Origin: an uncultured Lentisphaeria bacterium | GTDB taxonomy: Bacteria; Verrucomicrobiota; Lentisphaeria; JABSQK01; JAJFLO01 | Direction of reading: 5' to 3' | NCBI GenBank assembly: GCA_951812855.1 | Contig: OX638337.1 | Coordinates: 960,108 to 1,024,107 of the forward strand | DNA: 64,000 nucleotides | In this document: positions 3,688-61,404 of the stretch, one piece after another | Numbering within the stretch: position 1 is the first letter of the stretch | Layout of the letters: each line of letters opens with the position of its first letter | Program-made: the position numbers and the translations under genes | The notes under the pieces: generated by a model | Seen by the model: the letters and a program-made list of their open reading frames with translations, nothing else | What the model was told of the DNA's origin: nothing | Database searches by the model: none

Positions 3688-5105
3688 TGAATATGACAAC
3701 GTGTCCTGGTGAAGAACTCAAATCAGCGGCTGACGCTATCGACAAAGAATTTGATTCTGTTCGTAATATCAACGATTCAGAACAGGATAGTTCACGCATC
3801 ATAATCCGGCGAATAAACGTCTCTATTCCGAAAACCAATTTACTTTCCTGGCTGGACAAACAAATAATCTATCCAAAAATTTACTGGTACAGTCGGAATA
3901 TCAATCACGAAATTGTATGTACGGGCAGTATTCACACTATTATTGGCGATCACCTGAAAAACTTAAAAGATGAATTCAATGACTCAGCATTATTATCGGA
4001 TGCGGATTGTCGATATTTTGGAGGATTATCCTTTCAATCACAAATCACATCACCCGATTGGAATTCTTTTTCAGCGTATCAATTTATTTTACCTCAGTTT
4101 GAATTAGTCAATAAAAATGATGATGAAACACGCTTTATCTGTAATTTAAAAATTGATCCGACGAAAAATCTAATTAAACAAAAATCAAAAATACTTGACG
4201 ATTTATCACGGCTGGATTTTGATGAGACCTCTCCTGATTCAAAACCGTTACATATTGAATCTCGCAGTAATCTCCCGGATCAAAAAAATTGGAATATTAA
4301 AATTGACAAAATTTTAAATGAAATAAGGACCGGAATATTCAAAAAACTGGTTTTAGCACGAGAATCGATCCTTAGGTGTCGGACGAACGTAAATGCCCTT
4401 TCACTACTGGCTAACGTTGGGGATCGTACTATGAATTCTTATCGATTTTATTTTCAACCCACCCCCGAATCCGAATTTTTTGGAATAAGCCCCGAACGAT
4501 TATTTTTTAGAGACAAAAATAAAATCAGTGTTGAAGCTGTTGCGGGAACAAGTCATCGGGGAAAAACAAAACATCAGGAGATTCAAACAGGAAGAGATCT
4601 ATTAAAATCAGAAAAGGCAAATCGGGAACACCGCTATGTTGTAAAAAATTTGAGACAGGTCCTTAACACACTTAATGCTAAAATCGAACACGAGACTCAA
4701 CCTGGAATCATGAAATTACATCAGCTTCAACATTTATTTCAGGAAATCACTGCATCTCTGCGGAATAACACTGACGATATCGATATTTTGACTGCATTGC
4801 ACCCAACCCCTGCGGTGGGTGGTTATCCAGGTGAAAACGCTTTATCCTATATTGAAAATATTGAAGGATTCGATCGCGGATGGTATGCAGGCCCAATTGG
4901 ATGGATTGGTAAAGAGCAAACTGAATTTGCAGTTGCCATTCGATCCGGATTATCAACGGGTAAAACATTGCATATTTACAATGGTGCCGGCATTGTTAAA
5001 GGATCTTCAGCACATGAGGAATGGGCAGAAATTGAAATGAAATTTTCGTCAGTAATAGGTTTATTGAACATTTTCATGCCAGAATTCACTGAAGAAAATC
5101 CATGA
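3687..5105 (+). CDS. menF: Isochorismate synthase (menaquinone-specific, MenF-like)
   Basis: 472-aa ORF; chorismate-binding C-terminal domain (…EAVAGTSHRGKT…, …ALHPTPAVGGYPG…, …GWYAGPIGW…); start codon overlaps ubiE stop (ATGA). Confidence 0.8.
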   Translation: MNMTTCPGEELKSAADAIDKEFDSVRNINDSEQDSSRIIIRRINVSIPKTNLLSWLDKQIIYPKIYWYSRNINHEIVCTGSIHTIIGDHLKNLKDEFNDSALLSDADCRYFGGLSFQSQITSPDWNSFSAYQFILPQFELVNKNDDETRFICNLKIDPTKNLIKQKSKILDDLSRLDFDETSPDSKPLHIESRSNLPDQKNWNIKIDKILNEIRTGIFKKLVLARESILRCRTNVNALSLLANVGDRTMNSYRFYFQPTPESEFFGISPERLFFRDKNKISVEAVAGTSHRGKTKHQEIQTGRDLLKSEKANREHRYVVKNLRQVLNTLNAKIEHETQPGIMKLHQLQHLFQEITASLRNNTDDIDILTALHPTPAVGGYPGENALSYIENIEGFDRGWYAGPIGWIGKEQTEFAVAIRSGLSTGKTLHIYNGAGIVKGSSAHEEWAEIEMKFSSVIGLLNIFMPEFTEENP

Positions 5106-54822: not shown

Positions 54823-55165
54823 TTACGAAAATTATTTAGGATAGAAACGGGAATGTCCATGGTTGTTTATATTCCGGATGTCGTTTTTGTTTTCTTTATA
54901 AATTTATAAAGTTTGTACAAGTAAGCCGTCGTTCTGTTTATTTTATTTTCATTTGACTTACCTTAATTTAATAGAGATAAATGGGTAATAAGAATAATTT
55001 GAAATCTTTACAAGAATTAGCAGAGTACTTAATATTAATTTTCTTAAAATCTATTCGACAGCTCATGATTTCGTATGAGAGCTGACGGTGTTGAACACGA
55101 TTAATGACTGAATACTCCATGACATATTTGGGCATGTATTTTTATTTACACAGCAGCTTTTTTAC

Positions 55166-55912
55166 TTGATTGATCTGACTGCAGAAATTTTAACCTTAAA
55201 GGAAACTCAAATGTATTGTGTCAGTGACTGGTATTTATCTTTAGGGCTTTATACATTTCCAACTCTATTTATTCAGTTGAATAATGATGAGATTGAATTA
55301 ATCAGAAATGTTGAAGATTGTTCTAATTCTTCCAGAAATATTATCAGAAAAATTGACAGTGCCGTAACCAGTTTCCCCGGAAGCAGTTTTATACATGTAG
55401 ACTATTGTGCCCCAACCGATTCTTCGTTATTTCAGAAGGGAAAAGGAGCGATTAATTCTGGTAAAACCGGCTGGAATATCCTGTCTCAAAGTGAAAAAGT
55501 AAAAAAGGCATTCGCCGAAGATAAAACAAAAAGGATTTGTGTTCATCCGTACAGAAGAATAGATCATGCCCGCGAATTCAGAGTTTTCACTAAAGCAGGT
55601 ACGGTTGTGGGAGTGTCTCAAAAAGATGTCGCTAAACATCATCCTAAACTTCATAAACGTCGGGACTTTATCCAAAGGAAAATTTACAAGTTTATGAAAC
55701 ATATCAATAGTCAATTGGAAACCGAAGACATCATTGTAGACGTTTATCTTACTTCTCAGGATGAATTAATGATTCTGGATACCCACTCATGGGGCGGGGC
55801 AACAAATCCGTTATTATTTCGCGACTGGGATCGTGACTGGAGTAAAAATTCTGGATTAGTTTTAGTTGAAAAACCCGAAAAGTTAGGGGGGAACGTCTCT
55901 GTTTCGTTTTAG
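55166..55912 (+). CDS. Cdc123/D123-family ATP-grasp protein (eukaryote-type)
   Basis: 248-aa ORF; three blocks closely parallel eukaryotic CDC123 as recalled: …GSSFIHVDYCAPTDSS… (cf. SVFPKLNWSAPRDA), …REFRVFTKAGTVVGVSQKD… (cf. AEFRCFVKENKLIGISQRD), …IIVDVYLTSQDELMILDTHSWGGATNPLLFRDWD… (cf. FVFDIYRDSRGKVWLIDFNPFGEVTDSLLFTWEE). Confidence 0.7.
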   Translation: MIDLTAEILTLKETQMYCVSDWYLSLGLYTFPTLFIQLNNDEIELIRNVEDCSNSSRNIIRKIDSAVTSFPGSSFIHVDYCAPTDSSLFQKGKGAINSGKTGWNILSQSEKVKKAFAEDKTKRICVHPYRRIDHAREFRVFTKAGTVVGVSQKDVAKHHPKLHKRRDFIQRKIYKFMKHINSQLETEDIIVDVYLTSQDELMILDTHSWGGATNPLLFRDWDRDWSKNSGLVLVEKPEKLGGNVSVSF

Positions 55913-55950
55913 TTAGAAGTAATCTGATACAGCAAACCAGAAACTGAACT

Positions 55951-57138
55951 TTATTCAAGACTGGTGTTGTGGGAGAAGCAGATTCGTGAAATACATTCAT
56001 TAAAGTTTTCATGCCCACTTAAAATATCGATTTCTACACGCATATGGACAATTTGTAAATCTCTTCTATCCATCATTGGAAATCGAACAGAATCCTTTTC
56101 AGTTGTGACTATAAGGTCAGCATTACGTTTCAATGCAGCATTAATAAAATTAATGATTTCTTGCTGTGTATATCGATGATGGTCGGCAAATCGTTCCTTA
56201 TAAACGAGGTCGCCGCCAAAACTGGAAAGAAATTTTTCAAAGCCTGCCGGAGCTGCAATGCCTGAAATAGATGCGATTTTCTTTCCATTTAAATAGTCCG
56301 GATCAAATTTCTGTTTTGAGTATATGTCTTCCAGATATTGAGGCTTATGGGTACATTCAATAATTTCCGCACGGTGATTATGCTTTTTCAGGAAACGCTT
56401 GAAGTGATGCAGGTGTTTTCCGCCTGAAGATTTGGTCAGGAATATATAATCGGCTCTTTGAATATTTTTAATTGGTTCTCTGAGTAATCCTCTGGGGAGT
56501 AAATGGTGATTATCAAAAGGGTTAGTCGAATCGATTAACAAGATGTTCAATTTGGGTTTTAAAGGGAGGTATTGAAAACCATCATCAAGTATCAGAGTAT
56601 CTGAATTGAATTCATTTATAGCATAACGTCCACTTTTGACACGATCTTTATCAACCAATATAACAACATCTTTTAAATTGGTTGCCAACATATACGGTTC
56701 ATCACCGGCCATTTCTGAATTTAACAATAAACTCTTTCCATCAGATACAATTCTCGGGGGAATATCCTGGTTGCGTTTGAAGATGAAGTCCGCAATTTTT
56801 TCGAAAAATGGTTTTCCTTTATTTCGGTAGCCCCGGCTAAGAATTGCAACTTTTCTTCCTTTCGCTGCAAGCGTTTTTGAAAAAACTTCGACAACGGGTG
56901 TTTTTCCGGTTCCACCGACGGTAAGATTTCCTATGCTGACAACCAGACAGCCGAGAGTATGGTCGCGAAAAATACGATCTCGGTATATAGTCAGACGAAG
57001 CTGTACTAAAGAGCGAAACATTCTGGACAACACAAAAAGCAATGATTTGGCACAGATATCAACTGGAGAATGCCGTTTTTCCTTGATAATATCAGTTACA
57101 TAGGTTTCGGCCTTCTCGATTATGATTTGGAAATTCAT
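55951..57138 (-). CDS. lpxK: Tetraacyldisaccharide 4'-kinase
   Basis: 395-aa ORF; P-loop …VSIGNLTVGGTGKTPVV… and …AILSRGYRNKG… characteristic of LpxK. Confidence 0.9.
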   Translation of the reverse strand: MNFQIIIEKAETYVTDIIKEKRHSPVDICAKSLLFVLSRMFRSLVQLRLTIYRDRIFRDHTLGCLVVSIGNLTVGGTGKTPVVEVFSKTLAAKGRKVAILSRGYRNKGKPFFEKIADFIFKRNQDIPPRIVSDGKSLLLNSEMAGDEPYMLATNLKDVVILVDKDRVKSGRYAINEFNSDTLILDDGFQYLPLKPKLNILLIDSTNPFDNHHLLPRGLLREPIKNIQRADYIFLTKSSGGKHLHHFKRFLKKHNHRAEIIECTHKPQYLEDIYSKQKFDPDYLNGKKIASISGIAAPAGFEKFLSSFGGDLVYKERFADHHRYTQQEIINFINAALKRNADLIVTTEKDSVRFPMMDRRDLQIVHMRVEIDILSGHENFNECISRICFSHNTSLE

Positions 57139-57623
57139 AAACCATGAAATGCATCATCTGCCATAGAATAATCACTGATTTCATTTGGTGAAAACCAAAT
57201 ATTGATTTCATTTTCTGCTTCTTCAATGGTAGCAGATGCATGGATTAAATTCATTAGCGGCGGCGGCATTTCATCCCCGGGAGTTTCAGTTCTTTGCTGA
57301 TGTGCAAAATCACCTCGAATGGTTCCAGGCAATGCTTTTCCCGGCATTGTATCTCCGGCCATTAACCTTATTTTGTCGATTGCGTAACATCCACCAAGTA
57401 TAAAAATGATGACTGAATTTGATGTTACATATTTTTCCAATGATTTATAGAAAGGTTTATCGATATGTTCTGCATAATGCTGTCTGAATTTTTTGGTTGA
57501 CATAATTCCAAACTTCATTGCATGGATTTTCAATCCGGCGTTCTCAAATCGCCCGATTATTTTGCCAACGAACCGGCGTTGTATCGCATCAGGTTTTAAT
57601 ATAATCAATGATTTTTGATACAT
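57135..57623 (-). CDS. ndk: Nucleoside diphosphate kinase
   Basis: 162-aa ORF; …LIILKPDAIQRRFVGKIIGRFENAGLKIHAMKF… and active-site His region …NLIHAS…; stop overlaps lpxK start. Confidence 0.85.
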   Translation of the reverse strand: MYQKSLIILKPDAIQRRFVGKIIGRFENAGLKIHAMKFGIMSTKKFRQHYAEHIDKPFYKSLEKYVTSNSVIIFILGGCYAIDKIRLMAGDTMPGKALPGTIRGDFAHQQRTETPGDEMPPPLMNLIHASATIEEAENEINIWFSPNEISDYSMADDAFHGL

Positions 57624-57696
57624 TTTTAATATTTTCTTTCTCTTTTATTAAGAATACGTGCCGGATAATAGATTACGGGAAACTACAAATAATATT

Positions 57697-59415
57697 CTAA
57701 ATCGTGGAAACAGGGAACTGATCCGTCAAGGATTTTACCTGGTCACGGACCTGTGTAAATATTGATTCATCATCAATATTTTTTACAACCTTATATATCC
57801 AATCTGCAATTAATTTCATTTCAGGTTCTTTCATACCCCGTGTCGTTACTGCTGGAGTACCTATTCTTAGTCCACTTGTCATAAACGGTTTTTCAGGATC
57901 AAACGGAATTAAATTCTTATTCACGGTAATTCCGGCTTTATCCAGGGCTGATGCCGCGATTTTCCCTGTTGTATTTAAAGGACGTAAATCGACCAGCATC
58001 AAATGATTGTCTGTTCCTCCAGATACAATACGGAACCCATGTTTGGATAATTCCTCAGCCATAACCTTTGCATTTTTTACAATTTGCATCTGATAATGTC
58101 TAAATTCATCGGTCAGAGCTTCTTTAAAACAAATTGCTTTTGCTGCGATGACATGCATTAACGGACCTCCTTGAATTCCCGGGAAAATTTGAGAATTTAT
58201 TTTCTTCAAATATTGCTCTCTGCAAAGGATGAAACCTCCTCTGGGGCCACGTAATGTCTTGTGTGTGGTAGATGTGACGACATCGGCATAGGGTACCGGG
58301 CCGGGGTGAATCCCTGCCGCCACCAGGCCGGCAAAATGTGCCATATCGACCATAAAAAGAGCATTTACTTTGTCCGCAATTTCTTTCAATCTCGGGAAAT
58401 TAATAATTCTGGGATATGCACTCGCACCGGCAAGGATCATCCTGGGCCTATTTTCTAATGCCAATGATTCGATGTTGTCATAATCTAAGTGTTCCGTTTC
58501 TTTATTAACTCCATAGCCAATAAAATCATAATATCTGCCGCTGAAATTAATCTTATGTCCATGTGTAAGATGTCCTCCGTGTGCAAGATCCATTGCAAGG
58601 ACCTTATCTCCAGGATCAAGTAAGGCAAAATAAACCGCCATATTTGCCTGGCTGCCAGAATGGGGTTGGACATTTGCACATTCTGCACCAAAGATTTTTT
58701 TTACGCGTTCAATTGCTGTATGTTCAACGTCATCGACGAAATCACATCCATCATAATAGCGCTTGCCTGGATACCCTTCTGCATACTTATTTGTCAGACT
58801 TGATCCCTGTGCAGCCCGGACTGCGGGAGAAACGATATTTTCAGAAGCGATAAGTTCTAATATTTCACTCTGCCTCCGGGTTTCCTTTTTTATATATCCC
58901 GCTATTTCAGGATCAACATCTTCAATTGCAGTTATATTATTATTCGGGCCTGTTTCAATTTTGTTAATGCGTCGTTTATGCCTGGCTTCGTTACTGAATG
59001 GGGTGTTTAACCACAATTCAATTAAGTCCAGTATTTCTTTGTCGGATTTGTTGCTGCTTCCAATAACAAGCACATTTGAATTATTATGTTCCCTGCTCAT
59101 TGCTGCAGACAGCTCTGATGTGACAAGTGCAGCCCGGACGTATCGATATCGATTTGCATTTATACACATACCGATACCTGATTTACAAATCAGTATACCA
59201 CAATCAGCCTTGCCAGTCGATATTTTAGCAGCGAGTATATTTGCGTAATCTGGATAATCATCTTTTTCATCGAAATCTGATGGACCTACATCTTCTACAT
59301 TCAACTTTTTGTCGTTAAAGTGTGCATATATTCTATTTTTTAACTCCCAGCCCCCATGGTCTGATCCAATAAGTATTTTGCATGGGGTTTTGGTAAAGTC
59401 GATTATGTCTCTCAT
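57697..59415 (-). CDS. glyA: Fusion protein: RpiB/LacAB-family sugar-phosphate isomerase domain + serine hydroxymethyltransferase
   Basis: 572-aa ORF; residues ~10-150 are RpiB-like (…[14 protein letters not shown]…[17 protein letters not shown]…NVLVIGS…); remainder is full SHMT (…[36 protein letters not shown]…, PLP-lysine region …[16 protein letters not shown]…); no internal start codon at the junction. Confidence 0.85.
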
Positions 59416-59418
59416 TAA

Positions 59419-59901
59419 TTAAGATTCCTTAAACTTGTCAATTATTTTCTGCAAGAACGCATCCAGTGCGGGTTGCATTTTATTAAAACATTCCTCATAA
59501 TCAGCCAGACCGCCACCGTAGGGGTCTTCTATATCTTCTTGTAAACCGACATGGCTCATTAGAGTTGACGTTTTTCTGCTTGAATTAACGAACAACAGTT
59601 TTATTTGTTCGTAATGTATCCTTGACATCGCGATAATGAAATCAGCAGATTTAACTGTATCTGCGGTTAAAGGTGAACTTGTTTGTCCGTCCCACAAAAT
59701 ATTTTTTTTGTTTAAGACTTCCTGTGCAAATACACTGGGTGGATGCCCGTGGGTTGCATATATACCTGCTGATGTAATTTCAAAATTTGTTAAACCGTCT
59801 ATTTCGCACCGATGTTTAATATAAGCCTCGGCCATTGGGCTTCTACATATATTACCGGTGCAGACAAATACAATTTTAATTTTGGTGTCAATTGATTTCA
59901 T
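59419..59901 (-). CDS. Low-molecular-weight protein-tyrosine phosphatase
   Basis: 160-aa ORF; CX5R P-loop …VFVCTGNICRSPMAEA… and DPYGG loop; 3 bp upstream of the rpiB-glyA fusion gene. Confidence 0.85.
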   Translation of the reverse strand: MKSIDTKIKIVFVCTGNICRSPMAEAYIKHRCEIDGLTNFEITSAGIYATHGHPPSVFAQEVLNKKNILWDGQTSSPLTADTVKSADFIIAMSRIHYEQIKLLFVNSSRKTSTLMSHVGLQEDIEDPYGGGLADYEECFNKMQPALDAFLQKIIDKFKES

Positions 59902-60124
59902 AAAATAAGTCTACGATCATCTGCAGGTTCTTATTGTCAGACTCACAAACAATGAAAAATATGCAAAAAATAATTTTTGTCTTACCGGTTTCCCCAGGCG
60001 ATATGGTTTATTGCATCGTGAAACATACACTCTTGTGGGCAGGTTGAGAAAAAATACATAATAATGGTGGAGAGAATAAAAAAATCAATGGTAAATTGGC
60101 GATAAATAATAGAATCAATTTAGT

Positions 60125-60148
60125 AAATTACAGCCTGGGCTGTAATTT
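60125..60148. promoter_or_regulatory. Perfect palindrome AAATTACAGC-CTGG-GCTGTAATTT in divergent promoter region (candidate operator or RNA hairpin)
   Basis: Seen directly: 10-bp arms with 4-nt spacer, ~150 bp upstream of aroB and ~225 bp upstream of the divergent LMW-PTP gene. Confidence 0.3.
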
Positions 60149-60297
60149 CGAGTGATTTCACCTTTTTAGAAGGTAAACTAAGCCATACTGTAGATAACGA
60201 ATGCAAACAAATAATACTGCATCACCAATATCAGTGAATTACAATTTAGCAGTAAAAGATCCGAATGTGTTGTTAATGATAATAAAAACAAACATGT

Positions 60298-61404
60298 ATG
60301 AGTATTTATAGTTTAAACGTTCCATTAGATGATCGATCATATGAAATTGTAATTGGCAAAGATTTTTTTAGCCAATGGCAGGATGTTCCTTCGATTCAAC
60401 CGGTGTTGGAAAACCGTACCTGTTTTGTAATAACAGATGAAAACGTTCAAAAATTATATCTAAAATCGGTTGAACAATGTTTGACAAATCTCGGTGTGCG
60501 TTACCTGGGAGACTACGCATTTTTACCAGGAGAAAAATCAAAGAGTCTCAGTACAGTCAAATCATTATATGAGAAAATGATTTCAGCTGGATTAGATCGA
60601 AAATCAATCATCGTGGCCCTGGGGGGCGGGGTTGTCGGCGATACCGCCGGATTTGCTGCTGCGACCTATATGCGAGGCATAGACTATGTACAAATCCCAA
60701 CATCATTGGTGGCACAGGTTGACAGTAGCGTTGGCGGTAAAACCGGTATAGATTTGGATCAGGGAAAGAATTTAATCGGAGCATTCTGTCAACCAAAATT
60801 AGTTGTCGTTGACACAATGGTATTACAGACCCTGCCGATTCGGGAGTTAGTATGCGGGTTGGCTGAAGTTGTTAAATACGGGGTTATTCTGGATGAAGTT
60901 TTTTTTTCATTTTTAGAAGATAATGTCTCTTCTATTTTAAATATTGATCAAACTGTGTTCCAGACAATCGTTCGAAAATGCTGCTCTTTAAAGGCAGATG
61001 TTGTTACAGGTGATGAATTAGATCAGGGAGGCAGAGCAATATTAAATTATGGACACACATTTGGTCATGCTCTGGAGAAATTAACATCATATACAGGCCT
61101 TACACATGGTGAAGCCATTGCAATCGGTATGGGGATGGCTGCAGACCTGGCTGTAATGAGGTATGGCGGATCAGAATTACTAAATTTAGTTAAACGACAG
61201 GATGATTTGTTTCAGGCATTTGGACTTCCTGTAAAATTTAATAAATTTTCCCCGGAAGAAATCCTTTTAGCTATGGCCGCGGATAAGAAATGTATTGATG
61301 GAAATATAAATTTTGTTTTGCCTGAGAAAATTGGTAAAGTTGTGATTGATTCAGGAATTGAAGAAGATTTGATTAAGCAAGCTATCGGAGCACGTATTGA
61401 CTAG
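60298..61404 (+). CDS. aroB: 3-dehydroquinate synthase
   Basis: 368-aa ORF; …VALGGGVVGDTAGFAAATYMRGIDYVQIPTSLVAQVDSSVGGKTGI… and metal-binding His region …NYGHTFGHALE…. Confidence 0.9.
   Translation: MSIYSLNVPLDDRSYEIVIGKDFFSQWQDVPSIQPVLENRTCFVITDENVQKLYLKSVEQCLTNLGVRYLGDYAFLPGEKSKSLSTVKSLYEKMISAGLDRKSIIVALGGGVVGDTAGFAAATYMRGIDYVQIPTSLVAQVDSSVGGKTGIDLDQGKNLIGAFCQPKLVVVDTMVLQTLPIRELVCGLAEVVKYGVILDEVFFSFLEDNVSSILNIDQTVFQTIVRKCCSLKADVVTGDELDQGGRAILNYGHTFGHALEKLTSYTGLTHGEAIAIGMGMAADLAVMRYGGSELLNLVKRQDDLFQAFGLPVKFNKFSPEEILLAMAADKKCIDGNINFVLPEKIGKVVIDSGIEEDLIKQAIGARID

Follow-up and report, generated by a model that had tools for sequence, protein, structure and literature searches.

The fused gene and its family

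The subject of this analysis is a gene in which an RpiB-type domain (ribose-5-phosphate isomerase B) and a complete serine hydroxymethyltransferase (SHMT, encoded by glyA) share one reading frame. The gene lies in a 64,000-nucleotide stretch of contig OX638337.1 (positions 960,108 to 1,024,107; assembly GCA_951812855.1) from an uncultured Lentisphaeria bacterium; that whole stretch is called the window here, and all coordinates refer to it. The gene and its parts are as follows, with residues numbered in amino acids (aa).

57697..59415, minus strand: rpiB-glyA fusion gene of 572 codons and a stop, with an ATG start and no internal stop
58957..59376, minus strand: RpiB/LacAB domain, aa 14-153, as delimited by Pfam and NCBIfam profiles
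58927..58956, minus strand: inter-domain linker, aa 154-163, with linker-like sequence on to about aa 167
57709..58926, minus strand: SHMT domain, aa 164-569, with the pyridoxal 5'-phosphate (PLP) lysine K386

A preliminary description of the locus had claimed that a complete RpiB/LacAB-like domain and a full-length GlyA are joined in one frame, with neither a stop nor an internal start at the junction. Pfam, NCBIfam and the open reading frame (ORF) agree on the two domains. PF02502 (LacAB_rpiB) matches aa 14-153 over its entire profile (1-138 of 138, E=7.7e-46, 155.9 bits against a cut-off of 24.7), and PF00464 (SHMT) matches aa 164-540, again over the entire profile (1-399 of 399, E=9e-166, 551.8 bits), both within the same 572-aa ORF. 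The SHMT part also scores 650.6 bits with NCBIfam model NF000586 (cut-off 335), and in a sequence search of the PDB it matched the solved bacterial SHMTs 3pgy and 1kkj at about 1e-166. The linker is short, about 10-14 aa. Inspection of start codons bears out the rest of the claim: a Shine-Dalgarno-like AAGGAA lies 9 nt 5' of the ATG of the fused gene, within the end of the preceding gene, and codons 135-258 of the fused ORF contain no in-frame ATG, GTG or TTG, so that an independent start of SHMT at its natural N-terminus is impossible. An internal start for a standalone SHMT was ruled out on this ground. The window holds no further copy of either RpiB or SHMT.

How widely is this form of the gene shared? 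The homologue set consisted of the 120 best matches in a collection of 5.8 billion proteins, and all 120 carry both Pfam domains, at 60-100% identity and 97-100% coverage. Most (115 of 120) are 565-592 aa long, and four (711-740 aa) have an additional N-terminal domain of the low-molecular-weight class of protein tyrosine phosphatases (LMW-PTP); one further family member, of 592 aa (P0060), has a longer N-terminus. Those homologues whose source is named are all from Lentisphaeria, Victivallales, Victivallaceae, Oligosphaeraceae or Lentisphaerota, and their annotation reads 'serine hydroxymethyltransferase' alone, with the RpiB domain unmentioned. Lentisphaerota SHMTs with a length near 572 aa, among them MEI6054921.1 and P0043 of Lentisphaerota bacterium ZTH, have the same two-domain architecture, length, linker and catalytic residues as the window protein; they are 60-85% identical to it over the full length and show no architectural difference. 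Linker length is fixed across the family, a 1-aa insertion occurring in one sequence of the 120. Judged by these sequences, glyA of Lentisphaerota normally takes the form of the RpiB-SHMT fusion. The invariant active sites (below) and the fixed linker in 120 sequences point to one old fusion event in that group, with both active sites apparently under purifying selection.

The fusion might instead be an error of sequencing or assembly, a missed stop or frameshift concealing what are really separate rpiB and glyA genes. Many other phyla have separate, in-frame rpiB and glyA genes with one dividing stop, and there one wrong base could be enough to give the look of a fusion. In the present case, however, contig L001, assembled independently and deposited in ENA, has 100% identity to the window across 10,393 bp, the whole gene and its cluster included, an agreement far outside what chance would give; three contigs in NCBI and ENA already carry the exact protein (P0001, 100% identical), and another contig, of 1.94 Mb, encodes a nearly identical variant of 572 aa. 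The junction (codons 148-174) has no homopolymer run, a separate SHMT would have no available start codon, and the 120 homologues, down to 60% identity, are all fused through the same conserved linker of fixed length. An artefact is thus vanishingly improbable and is effectively excluded, and with it the hidden stop or frameshift that the preliminary description had named as the finding that would undo its claim. That description had left open whether the fusion is typical of the lineage or novel; the unanimous homologue set, fused forms across Lentisphaerota, Kiritimatiellota and Verrucomicrobiota, and a published description from 2008 settle the matter as lineage-typical.

Is the N-terminal domain a true RpiB? 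It passes the NCBIfam models TIGR00689 (165.1 bits, cut-off 88.3) and NF004051, 'ribose-5-phosphate isomerase B' (163.9 bits, cut-off 135), and it aligns end to end with the solved RpiBs 6mu0 (Mycoplasma genitalium), 1o1x (Thermotoga maritima), 6fxs (a trypanosomatid) and 3ph3 (Clostridium thermocellum). From the Escherichia coli, T. maritima and C. thermocellum structures, the functional residues of RpiB are a Cys that serves as base, a Thr or Ser two residues on, a His-Asn pair, an N-terminal Asp-His pair and the phosphate-binding arginines of an RHxxR motif. Residues D19, H20, C77, S79, H110, N111, R145 and R149 of the window protein align with the catalytic motifs of 6mu0, 1o1x, 6fxs and 3ph3. 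Conservation of the catalytic residues, which the preliminary description had proposed as a check, holds across the family as well: D19, H20, C77, H110, N111, R145 and R149 are invariant in the alignment of 120 homologues, and position 79 is Ser in 100 of them and Thr in 16. The likeness to standalone RpiBs (E. coli 1nn4/2vvr, T. maritima 1o1x, C. thermocellum 3ph3, M. genitalium 6mu0) therefore runs the full length of the domain and includes the catalytic residues. The domain differs from these enzymes in being covalently joined to SHMT, and in its active-site loop, which is C-K/R-S-G and not the C-G-T/S-G of the solved RpiBs.

The loop reads C-K-S-G in the window (59180-59191, codons 76-79) and C-R-S-G in 112 of the 120 family members. 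On this alignment, the basic residue beside the catalytic Cys is a lineage-specific feature of the fused clade of Lentisphaerota.

There is a slim chance that the RpiB-like domain acts on another substrate, such as allose-6-P, galactose-6-P or erythrulose-4-P, or that it serves SHMT as a non-catalytic regulatory or oligomerisation module. The domain narrowly misses the strict rpiB equivalog TIGR01120, with 130.3 bits against a cut-off of 138.65, so that specificity for ribose-5-phosphate is likely but not certified by that model; when the lineage-specific C-(R/K)-S-G loop is considered together with this slight shortfall, substrate specificity would have to be called unproven. The RpiB/LacAB family does include other specificities, represented by the LacA, LacB and DerI models of NCBIfam, but the window domain scores far under the cut-offs of all three. 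Its closest solved matches are bona fide RpiBs, among them enzymes of trypanosomatids in which Ser likewise stands in place of Thr, and a standalone rpiB stands at the equivalent position 5' of glyA in many phyla. Invariance of the catalytic and phosphate-binding residues across 120 sequences argues, moreover, against a pseudoenzyme.

In the SHMT domain, the PLP lysine K386, in a TTHK motif, is invariant in the 120 homologues, as are Y211, E213, Y221, H282, H285, D357, H360, R392 and R517, and the likeness to standalone SHMTs (E. coli 1dfo, Geobacillus stearothermophilus 1kkj, Burkholderia cenocepacia 4n0w) is again full-length and includes the catalytic residues. A confident AlphaFold2 model, computed from 115 sequences of the family, has a mean predicted local distance difference test (pLDDT) score of 87.2 and a predicted template modelling (pTM) score of 0.85. 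In the model the C-terminal helix of RpiB (aa 144-155) is followed by a linker helix (aa 159-167, pLDDT of the linker region 74-84) and then by the N-terminal helix of SHMT (aa 169-184). With Foldseek, the modelled SHMT part superimposes on 4n0w and 1kkj at a TM-score of 0.95, with about 60% identity.

The phosphatase and the neighbouring genes

The fused gene is the second in a same-strand run of four, which faces aroB across a divergent intergenic region. The other features of the run are listed here.

59902..60297, no strand: divergent intergenic region between the LMW-PTP gene and aroB, 396 bp, the presumed promoter region
59419..59901, minus strand: LMW-PTP gene, 160 aa, PF01451, first gene of the cluster
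57135..57623, minus strand: ndk (nucleoside-diphosphate kinase), PF00334, 73 bp downstream of the fused gene
55951..57138, minus strand: lpxK (tetraacyldisaccharide 4'-kinase), PF02606, last gene of the run

The preliminary description had the fused gene follow an LMW-PTP gene at a distance of 3 bp and precede ndk-lpxK, and both placements stand on the ORFs and the Pfam matches. The phosphatase gene ends with a TAA at 59419-59421, 3 bp follow, and the fused gene begins with its ATG at 59415, the spacer reading TAA-tta-ATG; the phosphatase of the window is therefore not part of a triple protein of the Minf_1669 type discussed below. We consider that ptp, the fused gene and ndk are probably co-transcribed, given the 3-bp gap and the adjacency or fusion that is conserved elsewhere. 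Scans for promoters and terminators do not discriminate: 12 sigma-70 promoters were found where shuffled sequences led one to expect 16, and 3 intrinsic terminators against 3.5 expected. Since these counts are at the shuffled background, an operon is neither supported nor excluded by them. A search of positions 55000-61000 for Rfam families, including the ZTP, THF and glycine riboswitches and the T-box, gave nothing but a chance snoRNA match (E=0.57).

The phosphatase itself matches PF01451 over the whole profile (1-144 of 144, E=2.2e-31) and has the P-loop CTGNICRS, of the CX5R(S/T) form, and the general-acid loop DPYGG. Its closest solved relative is YwlE of Bacillus subtilis, a protein arginine phosphatase (1.2e-22). 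Phosphoarginine specificity depends critically on the Thr at P-loop position 5, and Ile at that position switches the enzyme to phosphotyrosine (PMC7772506, citing Fuhrmann et al. 2013). Where YwlE has Thr at this position, the window phosphatase has Ile, as do LMW-PTPs of the phosphotyrosine type, so that it does not fall in the YwlE class. Among the phosphatases associated with the cluster (the window and L003-L013), position 5 is variously T, I, V, L, S or R.

A database entry deserves mention at this point. PDB 4egs bears the title 'Ribose 5-phosphate isomerase RpiB', but it matches the LMW-PTP of the window (E=1.2e-21, residues 8-152) and not the RpiB domain. The deposit probably owes its mistaken name to the neighbourhood of ptp and rpiB genes.

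At the distal end of the run, the stop of ndk and the start of lpxK share 4 bp (57135-57138), a sign that the translation of these two genes, unrelated in function, may be coupled. Convergent with lpxK, on the plus strand at 55166-55912, is a 248-aa ORF with a match to D123 (PF07065, CDC123-like, a mainly eukaryotic family; E=3.6e-22); contig L001 has a version called at 233 aa in the corresponding position.

Fused and separate genes in other bacteria

The distribution beyond Lentisphaerota was sampled in GTDB, one genome per species, with tblastn alignments required to span the junction; the matches listed make up the sample. At each sampled locus stop-to-stop ORFs were classed by domain hidden Markov models, and selected cases were confirmed with Pfam. 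Among the matches listed, fused RpiB-SHMT ORFs occur in Victivallales, in Pontiella (Kiritimatiellota), in several Verrucomicrobiota and in an Akkermansia sp., and also in one Acidobacteria metagenome-assembled genome (MAG) and one Coriobacteriales MAG. An Akkermansia muciniphila MAG (L005) encodes a triple PTP-RpiB-SHMT of up to 764 aa, measured as a stop-to-stop ORF.

Such a triple arrangement has been known for some time. Hou et al. (2008, PMC2474590) called Minf_1669 of Methylacidiphilum infernorum V4 an 'unusual protein', one that combines domains of SHMT, LMW-phosphatase and RpiB. Like Minf_1669, the A. muciniphila protein and P0015, P0019, P0021, P0109 and P0132, the window protein has RpiB followed by SHMT in one polypeptide, is associated with an LMW-PTP, and belongs to the Planctomycetes-Verrucomicrobia-Chlamydiae (PVC) superphylum; P0015, P0019 and P0021 are 64-66% identical to it over 99% of its length. 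Unlike the triple proteins, the window has its phosphatase in a separate gene. The fusion architecture is accordingly already known, in the literature since 2008 and with the exact protein in public databases, and is not a new kind of system.

Separate, adjacent rpiB and glyA genes, in that order, are found at no fewer than 21 loci (at least 21) in about a dozen phyla. Among the matches listed, they include Marinimicrobia, Planctomycetales, SAR11, Rhodospirillales, Bacillota, Acidobacteriota and Nitrospiria, and further Gemmatimonadota, Ignavibacteria, Actinomycetota, Myxococcota, Geomonas and Sphingomonas. Sixteen of the 21 listed pairs are in a shared frame, and in ten (L007, L012, L013, L015, L016, L021, L030, L032, L033 and L038, with junctions near locus position 4190) a single stop divides the two genes, though both shares are probably inflated because tblastn ranking favours just this configuration. 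For in-frame neighbours with a single dividing stop, one point mutation suffices for fusion.

The phosphatase recurs in this company. An LMW-PTP gene lies just 5' of separate rpiB-glyA in Planctomycetales and Bacillota loci, and, counting all arrangements, a PTP is directly upstream or fused in L003, L004, L005, L008, L009, L011 and L013 and in P0015, P0019, P0021, P0109 and P0132. At two loci, L004 (2664-3755, a Verrucomicrobiota MAG) and L008 (2667-3749, a Planctomycetales MAG), a fusion of Sua5/TsaC (PF01300) with LMW-PTP (PF01451) stands immediately 5' of rpiB(-glyA). These two fusions extend the conserved cluster to sua5-ptp-rpiB-glyA.

Versions of the separate arrangement are documented in the literature. 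In JCVI-syn2.0, glyA follows rpiB directly and needs read-through from it (PMC6755753). In Staphylococcus aureus, ptpB adjoins glyA. The glyA gene of B. subtilis (BSU36900) is next to ywlG (BSU36910), and the latter is driven by the promoter of ywlF, which is rpiB. Upstream, ywlE presumably precedes ywlF, and we take the full order to be ywlE-ywlF-ywlG-glyA. Taken together, the B. subtilis, Mycoplasma/JCVI-syn (rpiB-glyA) and S. aureus (ptpB-glyA) genes resemble the window in running PTP, rpiB, glyA on one strand, but they differ from it in being separate, and B. subtilis has ywlG between rpiB and glyA.

Did the fusion happen once or several times? Linker length and sequence vary between clades, and the linkers of Lentisphaerota and Verrucomicrobiota differ. 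Clade-variable linkers of this kind would fit either several independent fusions or fast drift of the linker. Given the differing linkers, the other fused forms of the PVC group may go back to the Lentisphaerota fusion event or to separate ones.

RpiB is also found fused to other partners. An RpiB-domain search of representatives clustered at 50%, in which the fused RpiB-SHMT family amounts to few representatives, turned up further RpiB proteins (P0222, P0162/P0230, P0177, P0121 and P0219). They include combinations of LMW-PTP with RpiB (303 aa), ribulose-phosphate 3-epimerase with RpiB (369 aa), RpiB with class II aldolase (376 aa), and RpiB with itself in tandem (308 aa), and one protein of 4856 aa has an RpiB-like stretch at residues 890-1016. 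The variety of partners speaks for opportunistic joining of metabolic neighbours and against a special mechanism.

These comparisons bear on the possibility that the two domains and the LMW-PTP form a functionally coupled unit, for instance through allosteric cross-regulation of the pentose phosphate and one-carbon pathways, or through a phosphatase that controls, or acts within, an RpiB-SHMT complex. We give this a small chance. In its favor, the linker of the Lentisphaerota family keeps its length and part of its sequence and is predicted to be helical in a model with a pTM of 0.85; the phosphatase, moreover, turns up time and again next to these genes, or covalently joined to them, in phyla from Bacillota to PVC, sometimes with Sua5/TsaC included. 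The RpiB and SHMT reactions, however, share no metabolite. The linkers vary by clade, many lineages keep the genes separate, and the fusions of RpiB to unrelated partners (Rpe, class II aldolase, itself) fit opportunistic joining of neighbours.

Origin and meaning of the fusion

What, then, is this gene? The reading that we favor, at a probability of about 0.8, is that it encodes a bifunctional RpiB-SHMT enzyme that arose by fusion of neighbours in the conserved (sua5)-ptp-rpiB-glyA cluster, with co-expression as the benefit. The N-terminal domain would be a catalytically competent RpiB that interconverts ribulose-5-P and ribose-5-P. It would lead, by way of a short structured linker, into a likewise catalytically competent, PLP-dependent SHMT that converts serine and tetrahydrofolate (THF) to glycine and 5,10-methylene-THF, and the reverse. 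The fusion itself may be traced to loss of the stop and the intergenic spacer between neighbouring rpiB and glyA genes, the parents having belonged to an old and widely conserved (sua5)-ptp-rpiB-glyA cluster, and the fused form would since have been inherited as the normal glyA of Lentisphaerota.

The two domains probably act independently. The likely benefit of their joining is that the two are necessarily co-expressed 1:1; as both parent enzymes form oligomers, co-assembly may be a further gain. The supply of ribose-5-phosphate, needed for phosphoribosyl pyrophosphate (PRPP), would in this way be tied to that of glycine and one-carbon units; both feed the synthesis of purines and thymidylate, and ndk lies downstream.

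Several points weigh against the bifunctional enzyme so described. To the TIGR01120 shortfall and the unusual active-site loop must be added the promoter and terminator scans, which speak neither for nor against an operon, and the PDB, where searches by sequence and by fold found the two domains never in one chain. In the searchable literature no work on the enzymology, expression or structure of a fused protein was found, the remark in the 2008 genome paper being the only mention, and the rationale from nucleotide precursors is one that we infer from pathway knowledge.

The finding has consequences for annotation. Genes labelled 'serine hydroxymethyltransferase' in Lentisphaerota and other PVC bacteria also hold an RpiB domain, and in the present organism, as seen from the window, that domain may be the ribose-5-phosphate isomerase of the cell. 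Metabolic reconstructions in which a standalone rpiB or rpiA is sought may mistakenly find the pentose phosphate pathway incomplete, because the RpiB is hidden in a gene labelled as SHMT. To our knowledge, no experimental explanation has ever been given for the conserved clustering of rpiB, glyA and the LMW phosphatase gene. The fusion provides a clean 'Rosetta stone' case for a functional link among the three.

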